Shown in pieces: positions 2,043 through 34,488 of a stretch of 64,000 nt of DNA. The stretch lies in the NCBI GenBank assembly GCA_039919015.1, contig JBDSGK010000017.1, positions 17,380 through 81,379 on the forward strand, read 5' to 3'. The notes below the pieces were generated by a model, which saw only the letters and a program-made list of their open reading frames with translations, searched no databases and was not told the DNA's origin. Position 1 is the stretch's first letter. Each line of letters opens with the position of its first letter. A program made the position numbers and the translations under genes. Source of the DNA: Ferruginibacter sp. Its GTDB lineage: Bacteria > Bacteroidota > Bacteroidia > Chitinophagales > Chitinophagaceae.

Positions 2043-2867
2043 GTGATAGTTTTCCCCAATTGTAAAATAAATCTTGGCTTACAAATTCTTGGTAAAAGAG
2101 ATGATGGTTTTCATAACCTGGAGACTGTATTTTACCCGGTTCCTTTTAAAGATGCACTAGAATTAATTCCAAATAAAAATAATGCAGTAGAATTTACCGG
2201 AACTGGACTGGCAATTGATGGTAAATCCGAAGATAATCTTTGTGTTAAAGCATATCATTTATTAAAAAAAGATCACCCTCAACTCCCTGCTGTAAAAATA
2301 CATTTACACAAAACTATACCCCTGGGCGCCGGCCTGGGCGGTGGTTCTGCCGATGCTGCTTGTATGCTGAACTTACTGAATGATAAGTTTGATTTAAAAC
2401 TCTCAACAGCTCAATTACAAAACTATGCCCTCCAACTTGGCAGTGATGCTCCTTTTTTTATCATAAACAAACCCTGTTTCGCAACGGGGCGTGGAGAAAT
2501 GCTGGAAGAAGTAGCAGTGGATCTGTCTATGTACAAAATTAAATTGATCAATCCGGGGATCCACATAAGTACCGGCTGGGCATTTGCACAACGGCCTGAC
2601 GGCTTTGAGCCGTCTGACCGTTCTAACCTCAAAGAGATCATTCATCAGCCAATAGAAACCTGGAAAGCTGATCTGAAAAATGATTTTGAGAAGCCGGTAT
2701 TTGATGCTCACCCGGAGATACAAATGATCAAAGAATCTTTATACCAACAGGGCGCCGTCTATGCATCTATGAGCGGAAGCGGCAGTACTGTCTACGGAAT
2801 TTTTAATAATAAAATCAACACATCATCGTTTAAAGACAAGAACTATTTCATCAAGATCATAAATTAG
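2043..2867 (+). CDS. ispE: 4-diphosphocytidyl-2-C-methyl-D-erythritol kinase
   Basis: KINLGL, GFHNLET, IPLGAGLGGGSADAA, LGSDAPFF and SMSGSGSTVYG GHMP-kinase motifs; GTG start. Confidence 0.95.
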   Translation: MIVFPNCKINLGLQILGKRDDGFHNLETVFYPVPFKDALELIPNKNNAVEFTGTGLAIDGKSEDNLCVKAYHLLKKDHPQLPAVKIHLHKTIPLGAGLGGGSADAACMLNLLNDKFDLKLSTAQLQNYALQLGSDAPFFIINKPCFATGRGEMLEEVAVDLSMYKIKLINPGIHISTGWAFAQRPDGFEPSDRSNLKEIIHQPIETWKADLKNDFEKPVFDAHPEIQMIKESLYQQGAVYASMSGSGSTVYGIFNNKINTSSFKDKNYFIKIIN

Positions 2868-2964
2868 TTTATCTTGCGCAAAAATTAATACATCATTAAT
2901 ACGCTGTTAAACATATCATCTTTCCTCTACAGTAACCTCGACCTGCTCAATCATCGAGGATAAA

Positions 2965-2993
2965 GCCCCACCTGGCCTCCCCGAAGGGGAGGA
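2965..2993. repeat. Solitary family B REP hairpin
   Basis: GCCCCACCTGGCCTCCCCGAAGGGGAGGA; the core CCCCGAAGGGGAGG is shared with 21-34. Confidence 0.6.
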
Positions 2994-3032
2994 ACTACCG
3001 AATTTTATTTATTCTATTAAAAAATTCATATA

Positions 3033-4268
3033 ATGAATTCAACTATTTCCATATCTGCCAACACACAACAATATTTAGACCTGGAAGAAAAACATGGTGC
3101 ACACAATTATCATCCGTTGCCGGTTGTATTGAACCGCGGCGAAGGCGTTTTTTTATATGATGTAGATGGCAAACGCTACTATGATTTTTTAAGCGGCTAT
3201 TCAGCCGTTAACCAGGGCCACTGCCATCCAAAGATCATTGCTGCATTAATTGAACAGGCACAAAAGTTAACCCTTACCTCACGTGCATTCCACAGCAATG
3301 TATTGGGCGAATATGAAAAGTTTATAACGGAATATTTTGGGTATAATAAAGTGTTACCGGTGAACTCTGGTGTGGAAGCTGTAGAAACCGCCATCAAACT
3401 TTCCCGCAAATGGGCTTACGAAGTAAAAGGTATTGCTGCAGACCAGGCAAAGATCATTGTATGTGATGGCAATTTTCATGGCAGAACGGTCAATGTCATT
3501 TCTTTCAGCAGCGATCCTACTGCAAAAAATAATTACGGCCCTTTTGTTGCCGGATACGAATCAATACCATACAATGATTTACCCGCTTTAGAAACAGCTT
3601 TCCAGGACAGGAATGTTGCTGCATTTTTATTTGAACCGATACAGGGAGAAGCGGGTGTTGTTGTACCCGATGAAGGATATTTTAAAGGCATCCGTGATCT
3701 TTGTAATGAGTATCATGTTTTAATGGTTGCCGATGAGATACAGAGCGGGCTTGCTCGCACAGGAAAAATGCTGGCTTGTGATCATGAGAACGTGAGGCCC
3801 GATATCCTGATACTGGGTAAGGCCCTGAGCGGCGGTGTATTACCGGTGAGTGCTGTGCTGTGCGATGATGAGATCATGTTGACCATTAAACCAGGTGAAC
3901 ATGGAAGTACTTACGGTGGTAACCCATTAGCATGCGCTGTAGCCATTGCTGCCTTACAGGCTTTAAAAGCCGAGAATATGGCTGCAAATGCAGAGACCAT
4001 GGGTGAAATGTTGCGCAGTGAATTGAAAAAACTGAACTCCCCATTTATATCCATAATAAGAGGCAGGGGATTATTAAATGCAATAGTTATTAAACATTCA
4101 AATCCTGATGCAGCATGGGAATTATGTTTGCTGATGAAAGAAAATGGTTTGCTGGCAAAGCCAACACATGGCGATAAGATACGCTTTGCCCCTCCCCTTG
4201 TTATTACTAAAGAACAGGTAATGGAATGTGTGGGTATAATTGATACAAGTTTGAAGCAGCTTGCATAA
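3033..4268 (+). CDS. rocD: Ornithine--oxo-acid transaminase (class III PLP aminotransferase)
   Basis: [48 protein letters not shown] and GKALSGG (PLP Lys). Confidence 0.95.
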
Positions 4269-31678: not shown

Positions 31679-31700
31679 CCCTCTTAAAAAATTGGCGTTG

Positions 31701-33203
31701 ATGCTGGACCTGGTTACAAGTAAACAACATGACGAATCAAGGCAAGGAGAAGCATTTGCCCCCTTTGTAAGCGATATAAATACTTTCAAAAAGCATTTTT
31801 ATATTGAAAGCTATGGTTGTGCCATGAACTTTGCCGACAGTGAGGTAGTGGCATCTATTTTACTTGAAAATGGTTTTGGCGCCACAAACAATTACCGCGA
31901 AGCCGATCTCATCTTTATAAACACCTGTTCGATCCGGGAAAAAGCCGAAACCACGGTAAGAAAAAGACTCACCGAATTCAGAAGCATAAAAAAAGAAAGG
32001 CCGGGCCTTTTAGTAGGTGTGTTGGGCTGTATGGCCGAGCGCTTAAAAGCTAAATTCATTGAAGAAGAGAAACTGGTTGATATCGTTGTTGGACCCGATT
32101 CCTACCGCAGTTTACCAGGACTGATAGAAGGAGCTGAAACCGGGCAAAAAGGCGTGAATGTGTTATTGAGTCGTGATGAGACCTATGCCGATATTGCTCC
32201 CATCCGCTTGAACAGTAATGGTGTTACTGCATTTGTAAGCATCATGCGTGGCTGCAACAATATGTGTTCATTTTGTGTGGTACCTTTTACAAGAGGAAGA
32301 GAGCGTAGCCGTGATGCTGCATCCATCATCAACGAATGCAAAACTTTATTTGAAGATGGTTACCGGGAAGTAACACTGTTGGGACAAAATGTGGACAGTT
32401 ATTACCAAGCCCCCCCGACCCCCCAAGGGGGGAGTCTGGAAGACTCAGCGAATTCAGAACAACCTTTGAATTTGCTGACTGCTAAGAACCCCCCTTCGGG
32501 GGGCAGGGGGGCCGTGACTTTCGCTTTGCTCCTTGAAAAAGTTGCGTTGATCTCTCCCCTGCTGCGTGTACGTTTTTCAACTTCCCATCCAAAAGATATT
32601 ACAGACGATGTGTTGCATACCATCGTGAAATACGAGAACATCTGCAACTATATTCACCTGCCTGTACAAAGCGGCAGCAGCCGTGTTTTACAGATGATGA
32701 ACCGCACCTATAGCCGGGAATGGTATATCGCCAAAGTGAACCGCATTAGGGAACTGATCCCCGATTGCGGCGTATCAACAGATATGATCACGGGTTTTTG
32801 TACAGAAACAGAAGAAGATCACCGGCAATCATTGAGCCTGATGGAGTATTGCAAATATGACCTTGCCTACATGTACTTTTATTCCGAAAGGCCAGGAACC
32901 CTGGCTGCCAGGAGATTTGAAGATGATGTTCCGCTGGAAGTGAAAAAGAGAAGGTTGCAGGAAATGGTTGACCTCTATCGTGGCCACTCTTTACAAGCCA
33001 TGCAAAAAGAAGTTGGAAAAACACGTAAAGTGCTGATTGAAGGGCCGTCCAAAAAAAGCGATAACGATCTGTTTGGCAGAACGGATCAAAATAAAGTAGT
33101 GGTGTTTGCAAAAGGCAATTTGAGACCTGGAGAATATGTAACTGTCAAAATAGACAAATGCACAGCTGGCACATTAATTGGCAGCATAGCGGAAAAGATC
33201 TAA
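31701..33203 (+). CDS. miaB: tRNA-2-methylthio-N6-dimethylallyladenosine synthase MiaB, with an in-frame repeat insertion
   Basis: YGCAMN, NTCSIRE and GCMAER (UPF0004); radical SAM CNNMCSFC; RFSTSHPKD; C-terminal TRAM domain. Confidence 0.97.
   Translation: MLDLVTSKQHDESRQGEAFAPFVSDINTFKKHFYIESYGCAMNFADSEVVASILLENGFGATNNYREADLIFINTCSIREKAETTVRKRLTEFRSIKKERPGLLVGVLGCMAERLKAKFIEEEKLVDIVVGPDSYRSLPGLIEGAETGQKGVNVLLSRDETYADIAPIRLNSNGVTAFVSIMRGCNNMCSFCVVPFTRGRERSRDAASIINECKTLFEDGYREVTLLGQNVDSYYQAPPTPQGGSLEDSANSEQPLNLLTAKNPPSGGRGAVTFALLLEKVALISPLLRVRFSTSHPKDITDDVLHTIVKYENICNYIHLPVQSGSSRVLQMMNRTYSREWYIAKVNRIRELIPDCGVSTDMITGFCTETEEDHRQSLSLMEYCKYDLAYMYFYSERPGTLAARRFEDDVPLEVKKRRLQEMVDLYRGHSLQAMQKEVGKTRKVLIEGPSKKSDNDLFGRTDQNKVVVFAKGNLRPGEYVTVKIDKCTAGTLIGSIAEKI
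32409..32512. repeat. GC-rich REPIN-like element inside the miaB reading frame
   Basis: Inverted 24-mers 32409-32432 and 32489-32512 (21/24 complementary), each itself a hairpin; translated as APPTPQGG...NPPSGGRGA. Confidence 0.85.
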
Positions 33204-33223: not shown

Positions 33224-33245
33224 CTCCCTTCAGGGGGTTAGGGGG
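33224..33245. repeat. Solitary REP related to the miaB insert
   Basis: CTCCCTTCAGGGGGTTAGGGGG, resembling CCCCCCTTCGGGGGGCAGGGGGG, directly before ATG 33247. Confidence 0.6.
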
Positions 33246-33246
33246 T

Positions 33247-34488
33247 ATGGAACTACAATCAATAAAAAATCGTTTCGGAATCATCGGAAATTCCTCCGGG
33301 CTAAACCATGCTTTAAATATAGCGGTACAGGTAGCCAATACCGATCTGAGTGTGCTCATCAATGGCGAAAGCGGTGTGGGTAAAGAAGTATTCTCACAGA
33401 TCATTCATGCATTAAGCGCCAGGAAACACAATCCTTTTATTGCCGTTAACTGCGGTGCCATCCCCGAAGGAACCATTGATTCGGAATTATTTGGCCACGA
33501 AAAAGGTTCTTTCACCGGGGCAGTTGACAGTCGCAAAGGTTATTTTGAGACCGTCAATGGCGGTACTATCTTTTTAGATGAGATCGGTGAATTACCATTA
33601 GGCACACAGGCCCGTTTATTACGTGTGCTTGAAGCAGGCGAATACATACGGGTAGGAAGCAGTAAAGTACAAAAAACAGATGTGCGGGTCATCGCTGCAA
33701 CCAATAAAGAGCTGATCGAATATACCCAGACCAACAGGTTCAGGGAAGATCTGTATTATCGTTTAAATACCGTACCCATCAGGGTTCCGGCATTAAGAGA
33801 AAGAAAGGAAGACATTTATTTATTGTTCCGGAAATTTGTAACTGATTTTTCTGACCGCTACAAAGGCACACCCGTACAACTGGATGAGGGGGCAAAAGAT
33901 GTGTTAATTAACTACCCCTGGCCCGGCAATGTGCGTGAATTGAAGAATATTGCAGAACAGATCTCGGTGCTCAGCCAGGATAAGACGATCAATGCAACTA
34001 CCATGAAGAGTTTTTTGCCCGAACACAATTATTCACGCCTGCCGGTTTTGGCAGGTGGTGCAGGTTCGGTGAGCCAGTCGGAGTTTGCCAATGAAAGAGA
34101 GATACTGTATAAACTTTTCTTCGACATGAAAAAAGATGTGAACGAGCTGAAGAAAATGTTCTTCGATCTTTTACAAAATCCGAACATCGCCCAGTTCGCA
34201 GAATCCCGTGGGCATGCACCCCTGTATACTGACCAGCCTTTTACAGAGTTGAATAACAACCCTTCAAATGCGTCTTCATCAAAACCTGTTTTTTTACAAC
34301 ACCATGCAGATGGTATAGACCAGCATGAAGATGTGGAAGAATCACTGAGCATTGTTGACAAAGAAAAAGAACTTATCATAAAAGCATTAAAGAAGCATAA
34401 GGGAAAACGTAAAGATGCTTCGCTCGACCTGGGTATAAGTGAAAGAACACTGTACCGTAAATTAAAAGAGTATGATATTGAAGAATAA
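33247..34488 (+). CDS. Sigma-54-interacting AAA+ transcriptional regulator (Fis family), no sensor domain
   Basis: GESGVGKE, GSFTGA, FLDEIGE, RVIAATN, FREDLYYRL and WPGNVREL; C-terminal HTH LGISERTLYRKLK. Confidence 0.92.
   Translation: MELQSIKNRFGIIGNSSGLNHALNIAVQVANTDLSVLINGESGVGKEVFSQIIHALSARKHNPFIAVNCGAIPEGTIDSELFGHEKGSFTGAVDSRKGYFETVNGGTIFLDEIGELPLGTQARLLRVLEAGEYIRVGSSKVQKTDVRVIAATNKELIEYTQTNRFREDLYYRLNTVPIRVPALRERKEDIYLLFRKFVTDFSDRYKGTPVQLDEGAKDVLINYPWPGNVRELKNIAEQISVLSQDKTINATTMKSFLPEHNYSRLPVLAGGAGSVSQSEFANEREILYKLFFDMKKDVNELKKMFFDLLQNPNIAQFAESRGHAPLYTDQPFTELNNNPSNASSSKPVFLQHHADGIDQHEDVEESLSIVDKEKELIIKALKKHKGKRKDASLDLGISERTLYRKLKEYDIEE

Follow-up and report, generated by a model that had tools for sequence, protein, structure and literature searches.

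To our knowledge, selfish palindromes that sit in frame within genes have essentially one textbook example, that of Rickettsia. The Rickettsia palindromic elements (RPEs; Ogata et al. 2000, as reviewed) are still treated as the outstanding case in a 2024 review (PMC10969869). Two other described systems resemble parts of the locus analysed here. Class II intrastrand triplex-forming (ITxF) sequences consist of C-G-G blocks with stems of at least 6 nt and loops of 1–6 nt (Holder et al. 2015, PMC4666352), and their TMECO/BoxC representatives are, according to the same authors, always intergenic in E. coli K-12 and unlinked to mobile elements. Vsr-like (EDxHD) homing endonucleases, typified by I-Bth0305I, are known from introns, inteins and 'fractured genes' (PMC2677866, PMC3239194). 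The locus itself is a 104-bp palindrome lying in frame within the gene for the essential enzyme MiaB, the tRNA ms2i6A37 methylthiotransferase, in a 64,000-nt stretch of a Ferruginibacter sp. metagenome-assembled genome (MAG) (GenBank assembly GCA_039919015.1, contig JBDSGK010000017.1, positions 17,380 to 81,379 of the forward strand; hereafter the window).

As in Rickettsia, the palindromes described here measure roughly 100–150 bp, lie in frame in many unrelated housekeeping genes, add translated loops at fold-compatible sites and are partly shared, partly lineage-specific among close species. The resemblance is one of behaviour only: the phylum differs, the arms here are homopolymeric C/G runs encoding Pro/Gly, and the MiaB site bears a co-conversion signature. 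The locus also has an ORF-bearing relative with the same ends, a cassette encoding a DUF559 domain, whereas the review names no autonomous RPE partner (PMC10969869).

We propose, with a probability of about 70%, that the MiaB palindrome is a non-autonomous miniature of an in-frame mobile cassette family. Full-length members would comprise two GC-rich terminal inverted repeats (TIRs) around a predicted DUF559 endonuclease (Vsr fold, PD-(D/E)XK). Such cassettes would enter loops or linkers of housekeeping genes with neither intron nor intein and would be translated within the host protein, tolerated through repeats that are stop-free, or nearly so, in all frames and that in their usual frame read as Pro-Pro...Gly-Gly linkers. 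The MiaB copy would retain only the two ends and subterminal sequence, and homologous recombination would swap filled and empty alleles among related lineages of Ferruginibacter, co-converting short flanks in a homing-like manner.

The two 24-nt arms of the palindrome are complementary at 21 of 24 positions (88%), and the region 32400–32520 is predicted to fold into a single long hairpin of −71.1 kcal/mol (z −7.6), which none of 200 shuffled versions equalled (mean −42.0, s.d. 3.8). The element encodes the peptide APPTPQGGSLEDSANSEQPLNLLTAKNPPSGGRGA, flanked by GQNVDSYY and VTFALLLE. Its coordinates and anatomy, with some 35 in-frame residues, had been laid out correctly in an original prediction made from the letters of the window, which had also named a related solitary arm downstream of MiaB. 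A search of the window for CCCCCN4GGGGGN3GGGGG with up to two mismatches recovered that arm and the two MiaB arms only (6 overlapping matches versus 0.03 expected by chance). The right MiaB arm is identical to arms at CarB, upstream of MurG and at other loci of the MAG. Comparison of the source genome (G000) with its closest relative (G040) revealed a compensatory A/T to T/A change that preserves the central stem of the MiaB element. Across MiaB alleles, the hairpin is kept in G000, G040, G046 and P0021 (z −7.6 to −9.5) and has decayed in P0025 (z −1.0) and in part in G001, which argues against strong selection on the structure. An Rfam search of the element at E up to 1 returned nothing beyond a chance snoRNA match.

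The host enzyme appears intact around the insert. The MiaB ORF aligns with Bacteroides uniformis MiaB (PDB 7MJV) at E = 9e-154 in two blocks, leaving query residues 243–273 unaligned opposite a three-residue gap that separates a beta strand from the helix after it. The six cluster cysteines, three of them N-terminal and three in CxxxCxxC, do not vary across an alignment of 52 MiaB relatives, and all three Pfam domains are present, in agreement with the predicted integrity of the MiaB motifs; MiaB with the insert would remain under purifying selection. An AlphaFold model, run with 52 close relatives and used only to ask whether the insert is unstructured, assigned residues 230–271 a pLDDT below 50 and no secondary structure, within a model that is itself poor (mean pLDDT 57). 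The insert is probably a disordered, Pro/Gly-rich surface loop that leads from a beta strand to the next helix of the radical-SAM barrel. In G000 a paralogous methylthiotransferase (UPF0004 and radical SAM; C253:2243–3562) carries a reverse arm, RPPAPQGG, after GINLGDF, at a position homologous to the MiaB insertion loop. The use of a homologous loop in two methylthiotransferases suggests a shared permissive or preferred position.

The arms belong to a repeat family that extends across the genome. The source MAG (3.99 Mb, 40% GC, 294 contigs, 90% complete), whose relatives are labelled Ferruginibacter/Chitinophagaceae, was searched with a regular expression for C-run, loop, G-run, spacer and G-run, yielding 88 arms versus none in a shuffled copy. 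Eleven doublets, the MiaB pair included, are minus-then-plus pairs 80–220 bp apart. When an arm is counted as lying inside an open frame if at least 35 codons are open on each side, 23 of 28 arms of the MiaB type (6C) qualify, as do 9 of 35 5C arms and 8 of 25 4C arms; the mean numbers of stop-free frames are 5.86, 4.49 and 4.52 of 6, respectively. More than 20 housekeeping genes of the MAG carry arms, among them genes of metabolism (CarB, iPGM, urocanase, PaaA/C, enoyl-CoA hydratase and multicopper oxidase), of DNA repair and replication (RecQ, two UvrA paralogues, DNA polymerase I and UvrD) and of translation (AspRS, IleRS, MetRS, a SpoU methylase and a TrmA-like methylase), as well as alpha-2-macroglobulin. 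Insert sites fall in loops or between Pfam domains; forward arms mostly read (D/E)S(E/K)N-PP(L/S/W)GG(G/R)GA and reverse arms APPxP(Q/K)GG. The genome search for other copies embedded in coding sequence had been proposed with the original prediction, and its outcome supports both the description of the element as a member of a repeat family and the parallel drawn to RPEs.

Solo arm units measure 42 nt. The iPGM unit is present in G000 and G040 and absent from G001, G046 and G007, whereas at CarB the right arm is present in G000, missing from G040, G046 and G007, and found in a decayed state in G001. Of 37 genomes of the genus, 12 contain the exact arm pattern, which is in none of 24 other genera sampled within the order. 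Across the species collection, most occurrences fall in Ferruginibacter/Chitinophagaceae, with others in Paludibacter, Prolixibacteraceae, Draconibacterium, Aequorivita, Flavobacterium and a small number of further taxa. There, 76 of 140 arms (118 loci) are flanked on either side by 60 or more open codons, versus 358 of 585 random positions; the two rates are about equal, indicating no avoidance of coding sequence by the repeats.

In relatives, three long doublets whose arms stand 450–560 nt apart connect this family to a nuclease gene: they lie in frame in MetRS (G012 and G045) and MetH (G042), and a DUF559 (PF04480) domain is encoded between their arms. A long doublet of G001 likewise belongs with these in-frame DUF559 cassettes of MetRS and MetH. 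Full-length cassettes measure 470–584 nt and consist of TIRs, laid out as C-run, spacer, C-run, loop and G-run, around a DUF559 domain of about 105 residues. The cassette ends GCCCCCCCGCCCCCCAAGGGGGGA ... TCCCCCCTTGGGGGGCGGGGGGGC are near-identical to those of the MiaB element, whose subterminal sequence is also similar in part. The left MiaB arm is near-identical to the left TIR, and the right MiaB arm is identical to the right TIR. The MiaB element itself contains no DUF559 domain, only the ends and subterminal sequence, and we class it as a non-autonomous derivative rather than a full member of the cassette family. A PF04480 census of 11 congeners gave 31 matches, most inside open frames of 800–1,300 codons. 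Their hosts include LeuRS (in several congeners, two of which lack 6C arms), MetRS (two sites), MetH, acetyl-CoA synthetase and an IcmF-like protein; the domain also occurs as N-terminal fusions to ArgB and others, and in a few free-standing copies. In the protein collection, a search restricted to whole-protein lengths of 476–1,515 aa returned 481 clusters with a DUF559 domain, in hosts such as MetRS, MetH, homocysteine methyltransferase, urocanase, adenine deaminase, CinA/PncC and IspG. In nearly all of the 120 clusters listed, AP(P/L)xPxGG ... PP(L/S)GGxGA flanks the domain.

Matches to the DUF559 domain include PDB 3HRL (1e-21) and the catalytic domain of I-Bth0305I (3R3P; 0.019). Across 129 copies, the motifs FRRQH, E.DG..H and RF.N show almost no variation. 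Vsr, DUF559 and 3R3P have been placed in one PD-(D/E)XK clade (Steczkiewicz et al., PMC3424549). No intein family was found in the arm carriers or among the precomputed Pfam domains of cassette-bearing proteins, and the phage and plasmid collections contained only distant DUF559 homologues (at most 45% identity) and no recognizable vector. A DUF559 cassette family sitting in frame in many Bacteroidota housekeeping genes appears to be undescribed; a literature search of incomplete coverage found no account of this arrangement.

Cassette-bearing genes show several further arrangements. N-terminal DUF559 ORFs of relatives read through an arm into ArgB, PabA-like and nucleotidyltransferase genes, forming fusions. 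MetH proteins P0121–P0131 (1,168–1,209 aa; the cultured Flavobacterium micromati is included) carry two DUF559 cassettes at different sites in one protein, and tandem or nested arms occur in other proteins, for example P0167, P0171 and P0202. The only MetRS gene of the MAG (C276:11215–13884) has a TAA inside its in-frame DUF559 cassette (YVE*HRSNP), dividing the locus (L222) into ORFs 716–2335 and 2366–3385 (539 aa and 339 aa); the cassette is intact in G040. The TAA reflects one of three things: an essential enzyme that has become split, an error in the consensus, or cassette decay able to break its host.

Two orthologous series run from full cassette to remnant. At the MetH site, G011 and G012 harbour a full cassette and G000 keeps the last 32 DUF559 residues between degenerate arms. 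In the spacer after MiaB, the left arm of G012 overlaps the stop codon of MiaB and is followed by a free-standing 131-aa DUF559 ORF and then by a right arm that directly adjoins the ATG of the following gene; G011 retains the left arm only, G000 and G001 the right arm only, and more distant congeners have neither. Judged from this series, the solitary arm of the window is the relic right end of an intergenic DUF559 cassette. These two loci are the only ones at which sequence comparison indicates the direction from cassette to miniature.

At the MiaB site itself, presence of the insert is patchy. Alignment with orthologues, as had been proposed, found most of them without it and the loop variable in length, with 66 nt in most congeners versus 147 nt in this MAG; the closest relatives (G040, G046 and G001) have an insert at the same position. 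Counted as 90%-identity protein clusters from independent assemblies among the best 120 MiaB relatives, 66 clusters are filled (insert of 30–53 residues), 51 are empty and 2 have short forms. The empty clusters share a conserved 12-residue loop, (Y/H)W(V/I)DEQK(D/E)xxVT, of which WVDEQKDER is absent from the filled allele. The element thus replaces these 27 nt, and the predicted insertion, although present in the loop, is not a simple addition. Arm subtype and length vary freely among the inserts. When 119 MiaB proteins are placed on a tree with the loop masked, filled and empty states intermingle, with a minimum of 27 state changes, at least 12 of which are forced by well-supported branches.

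Near-identical filled and empty alleles differ most beside the insert. At the DNA level, the substitution peak adjoins the insert in all three pairs: filled P0012 and empty P0072 have 17 substitutions in the 100 nt after the insert and 10 before it (0–6 in other 100-nt bins), P0021 and P0074 have 28 and 6 (0–13), and P0025 and P0090 have 15 and 11 (0–9). Many of these clustered changes are synonymous. Flanking residues track allele state (FALLLE versus FAMLME), with the FALLLE residues found in 73% and 86% of filled alleles and in 4% and 18% of empty ones. The pattern fits gene conversion with co-converted flanks rather than transposition, and we read it as homing-like allele exchange; ordinary recombination or compensatory change could also have produced it. 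DUF559 may start such conversion events and so drive the spread of the family, with the arms serving as its putative recognition structure and as portable homology.

Arms also differ between orthologous sites. The left-arm subtype of the MiaB insert is common to G000 and G001 and not to the closer G040, and the RecQ linker holds three different arm-derived inserts in three close species (G000 C82, G040 and G001). Together, the RecQ and MiaB differences point to possible arm replacement or conversion between copies. The MiaB loop of G012 contains a different in-frame insert of 35 residues, a non-palindromic, low-complexity repeat of the TTDDGQPTT / ACAGACGACGG type, which recurs at two places in G012 MetRS where other species have arms or cassettes.

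Several points weigh against the reading proposed for the MiaB palindrome. No full-length DUF559 cassette occupies the MiaB loop in any of the best 120 MiaB relatives, and none with 6C-type arms is found in the MAG or in G040; the miniature could be a landing pad in which no nuclease gene was ever present. The palindromy of the miniature runs through the centre, a symmetry not expected from simple internal deletion within an asymmetric ORF. Comparison of filled and empty MiaB, iPGM, CarB and urocanase gave no target-site duplication or common target motif, and a nuclease alone would leave entry into new sites unexplained, the activity and specificity of DUF559 being themselves only predicted. 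The flank differences could in part reflect compensatory protein evolution and not co-conversion, and frame conservation is the only indication that the element is translated as part of MiaB.

Some of these points would also fit reversed causality, an account that we consider unlikely, in which arms of the BoxC/PIT type spread alone by another route, DUF559 genes are secondary invaders homing into arm pairs and the MiaB palindrome never held a nuclease gene. Central palindromy in a miniature devoid of any DUF559 remnant and the missing full-cassette MiaB agree with it, as do the clean gains of 42-nt solo arms in iPGM and CarB relative to close relatives and the E. coli BoxC/TMECO repeats, reported without a mobile-element link (PMC4666352). 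It accounts poorly, however, for the two orthologous series from full cassette to remnant, for the DUF559 residues that G000 MetH retains between its arms and for the flanking of the domain by arms in nearly all of the listed fusion proteins. Alternatively, the loop might be useful to its host, with the peptide or the −71 kcal/mol stem tuning MiaB activity or expression. Retention of the hairpin in four alleles, the compensatory change in its central stem and the breadth of the insert across 66 clusters favour such a role, but filled and empty states alternate among near-identical alleles, insert length and arm subtype are unconstrained, the hairpin has decayed wholly or partly in two lineages, and the element also sits in more than 20 unrelated genes. 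We regard domestication or regulation as improbable; the term 'domesticated' in the original prediction finds no support in this presence and absence, wide sequence variation and decay, and we infer that the MiaB loop has no function of its own.

The original prediction had further called the palindrome REPIN-like, which would imply mobilization by a REP-associated tyrosine transposase (RAYT). Inverted doublets 80–220 bp apart, always minus-then-plus, and a larger number of Y1_Tnp genes in carrier than in non-carrier genomes would suit this label, yet no GTAG or CGTC tag lies beside the arm hairpin, and the 6C subfamily is mostly intragenic (23 of 28 in open frames). The candidate transposases of the MAG (90% complete) were rejected: its five strong, intact-looking Y1_Tnp (PF01797) genes, at C31, C217, C144, C174 and C1, each have a REP type of their own on both sides (for example CCCCGTAGGGGCGATATG, GTAG-tagged, at C174, and GCCCTTTCAGGGC). 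The REP/RAYT systems of the MAG are co-resident with the DUF559-type family and separate from it, and a RAYT origin of the MiaB palindrome is very improbable. The chance that the insert is an assembly artefact, or is removed by splicing or ribosomal bypass, we judge to be close to negligible. The MAG is fragmented into 294 contigs, and both GC homopolymers and palindromes make assembly difficult; against an artefact, which had been named as an outcome that would undo the prediction, stands the same-site insert in 66 clusters from independent assemblies. Removal from the transcript or the protein would not need an open host frame, which 23 of 28 6C arms keep on both sides, and the element has no Rfam match.

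By sequence, the arm, C6-TT(C)-G6-N1-2-G6-7, falls within the class II C-G-G definition, and the arms fit the BoxC/PIT 'intrastrand triplex' architecture of C-block, loop, G-block, short loop and G-block, the triplex itself being putative. As with BoxC/PIT, some arms form inverted pairs of two subtypes, 5C arms have TTA as second loop, and there is an association with local genomic variability. The MiaB arms do not match the TMECO consensus CCCTCNCCC N3-6 GGGNGAGGG N3 GGGNGAGGG: TMECO stems are mixed and 9 nt long (CCCTCNCCC...), whereas those of the MiaB arms are homopolymers of 6–7 nt, and the arms here are mostly intragenic and bound a nuclease cassette. Arm peptides of LeuRS cassettes (TPNPSPKERGT ... 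SPLLWRGVGGEV), seen as peptides only, point to DNA with mixed C/T and G/A runs that would lie nearer the TMECO consensus.

With homing endonucleases and inteins the cassettes share an in-frame position in conserved housekeeping genes, a sporadic distribution at odds with the host-gene tree, clustered flank substitutions resembling co-conversion tracts and a nuclease of the Vsr/DUF559 clade. Unlike these systems, they have no Hint/splicing domain, nor an intron, and the insert would stay in the mature protein. They also occupy many different target sites, carry structured GC-rich terminal repeats and have abundant nuclease-less miniatures; Vsr-like homing endonucleases are not known as read-through in-frame cassettes. 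[quoted passage not shown] They differ in lacking an associated RAYT or DDE transposase and target-site duplications, and in being mostly intragenic and in frame.

The MiaB palindrome and its relatives represent a second large case of in-frame palindromes, in free-living Bacteroidota, and one with a candidate parent element: a nuclease cassette lodged inside essential enzymes without being spliced out. More broadly, and tentatively, at somewhat less than even odds, DUF559 (Vsr-fold) nucleases, which form a very large family, might be the engines of an undescribed class of in-frame mobile elements, with cassettes of about 0.45 kb that are neither intron nor intein and end in stop-free Pro/Gly linkers. 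These would spread by nuclease-triggered gene conversion with the arms as portable homology, and the BoxC/PIT and RPE-like palindromes of several phyla would be their nuclease-less offspring. If true, this would give BoxC/PIT repeats a testable origin and the DUF559 family a candidate role, and would provide a natural inventory of the sites at which conserved enzymes permit insertion and of their Pro/Gly linkers. The cultured F. micromati, with its two-cassette MetH, is a tractable carrier.

Table 1. Features of the window at and around the MiaB palindrome (positions count from the first letter of the window).
Feature	Position	Strand	Description
MiaB gene (tRNA ms2i6A37 methylthiotransferase), host of the element	31692..33203	+	ORF of 503 aa; Pfam UPF0004, Radical_SAM, TRAM
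Miniature palindromic element, 104 bp	32409..32512	+	In frame, ~35 residues (APPTPQGG...PPSGGRGA)
Left terminal arm	32409..32432	-	Minus-strand motif CCCCCCTTGGGGGGTCGGGGGGGC; coding strand reads APPTPQGG
Central sub-palindrome TCAGCGAATTCA ... TGAATTTGCTGA	32445..32478	.	Reads SANSEQPLNLL; predicted from fold
Right terminal arm CCCCCCTTCGGGGGGCAGGGGGGC	32489..32512	+	Reads (N)PPSGGRGA
Solitary arm, 5C subtype, CTCCCTTCAGGGGGTTAGGGGG	33224..33245	+	One base 5′ of the next gene's ATG
Sigma-54-dependent activator gene	33247..34488	+	Sigma54_activat and HTH_8 on orthologue; start codon abuts solitary arm

The placement of the solitary arm directly ahead of the activator gene recurs elsewhere in the MAG. 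Arms of the 4C and 5C subtypes very often end 0–12 nt before a start codon, as in the window (33224–33247) and at C220:16895, C9:15716, C95:17885 and C160:847.

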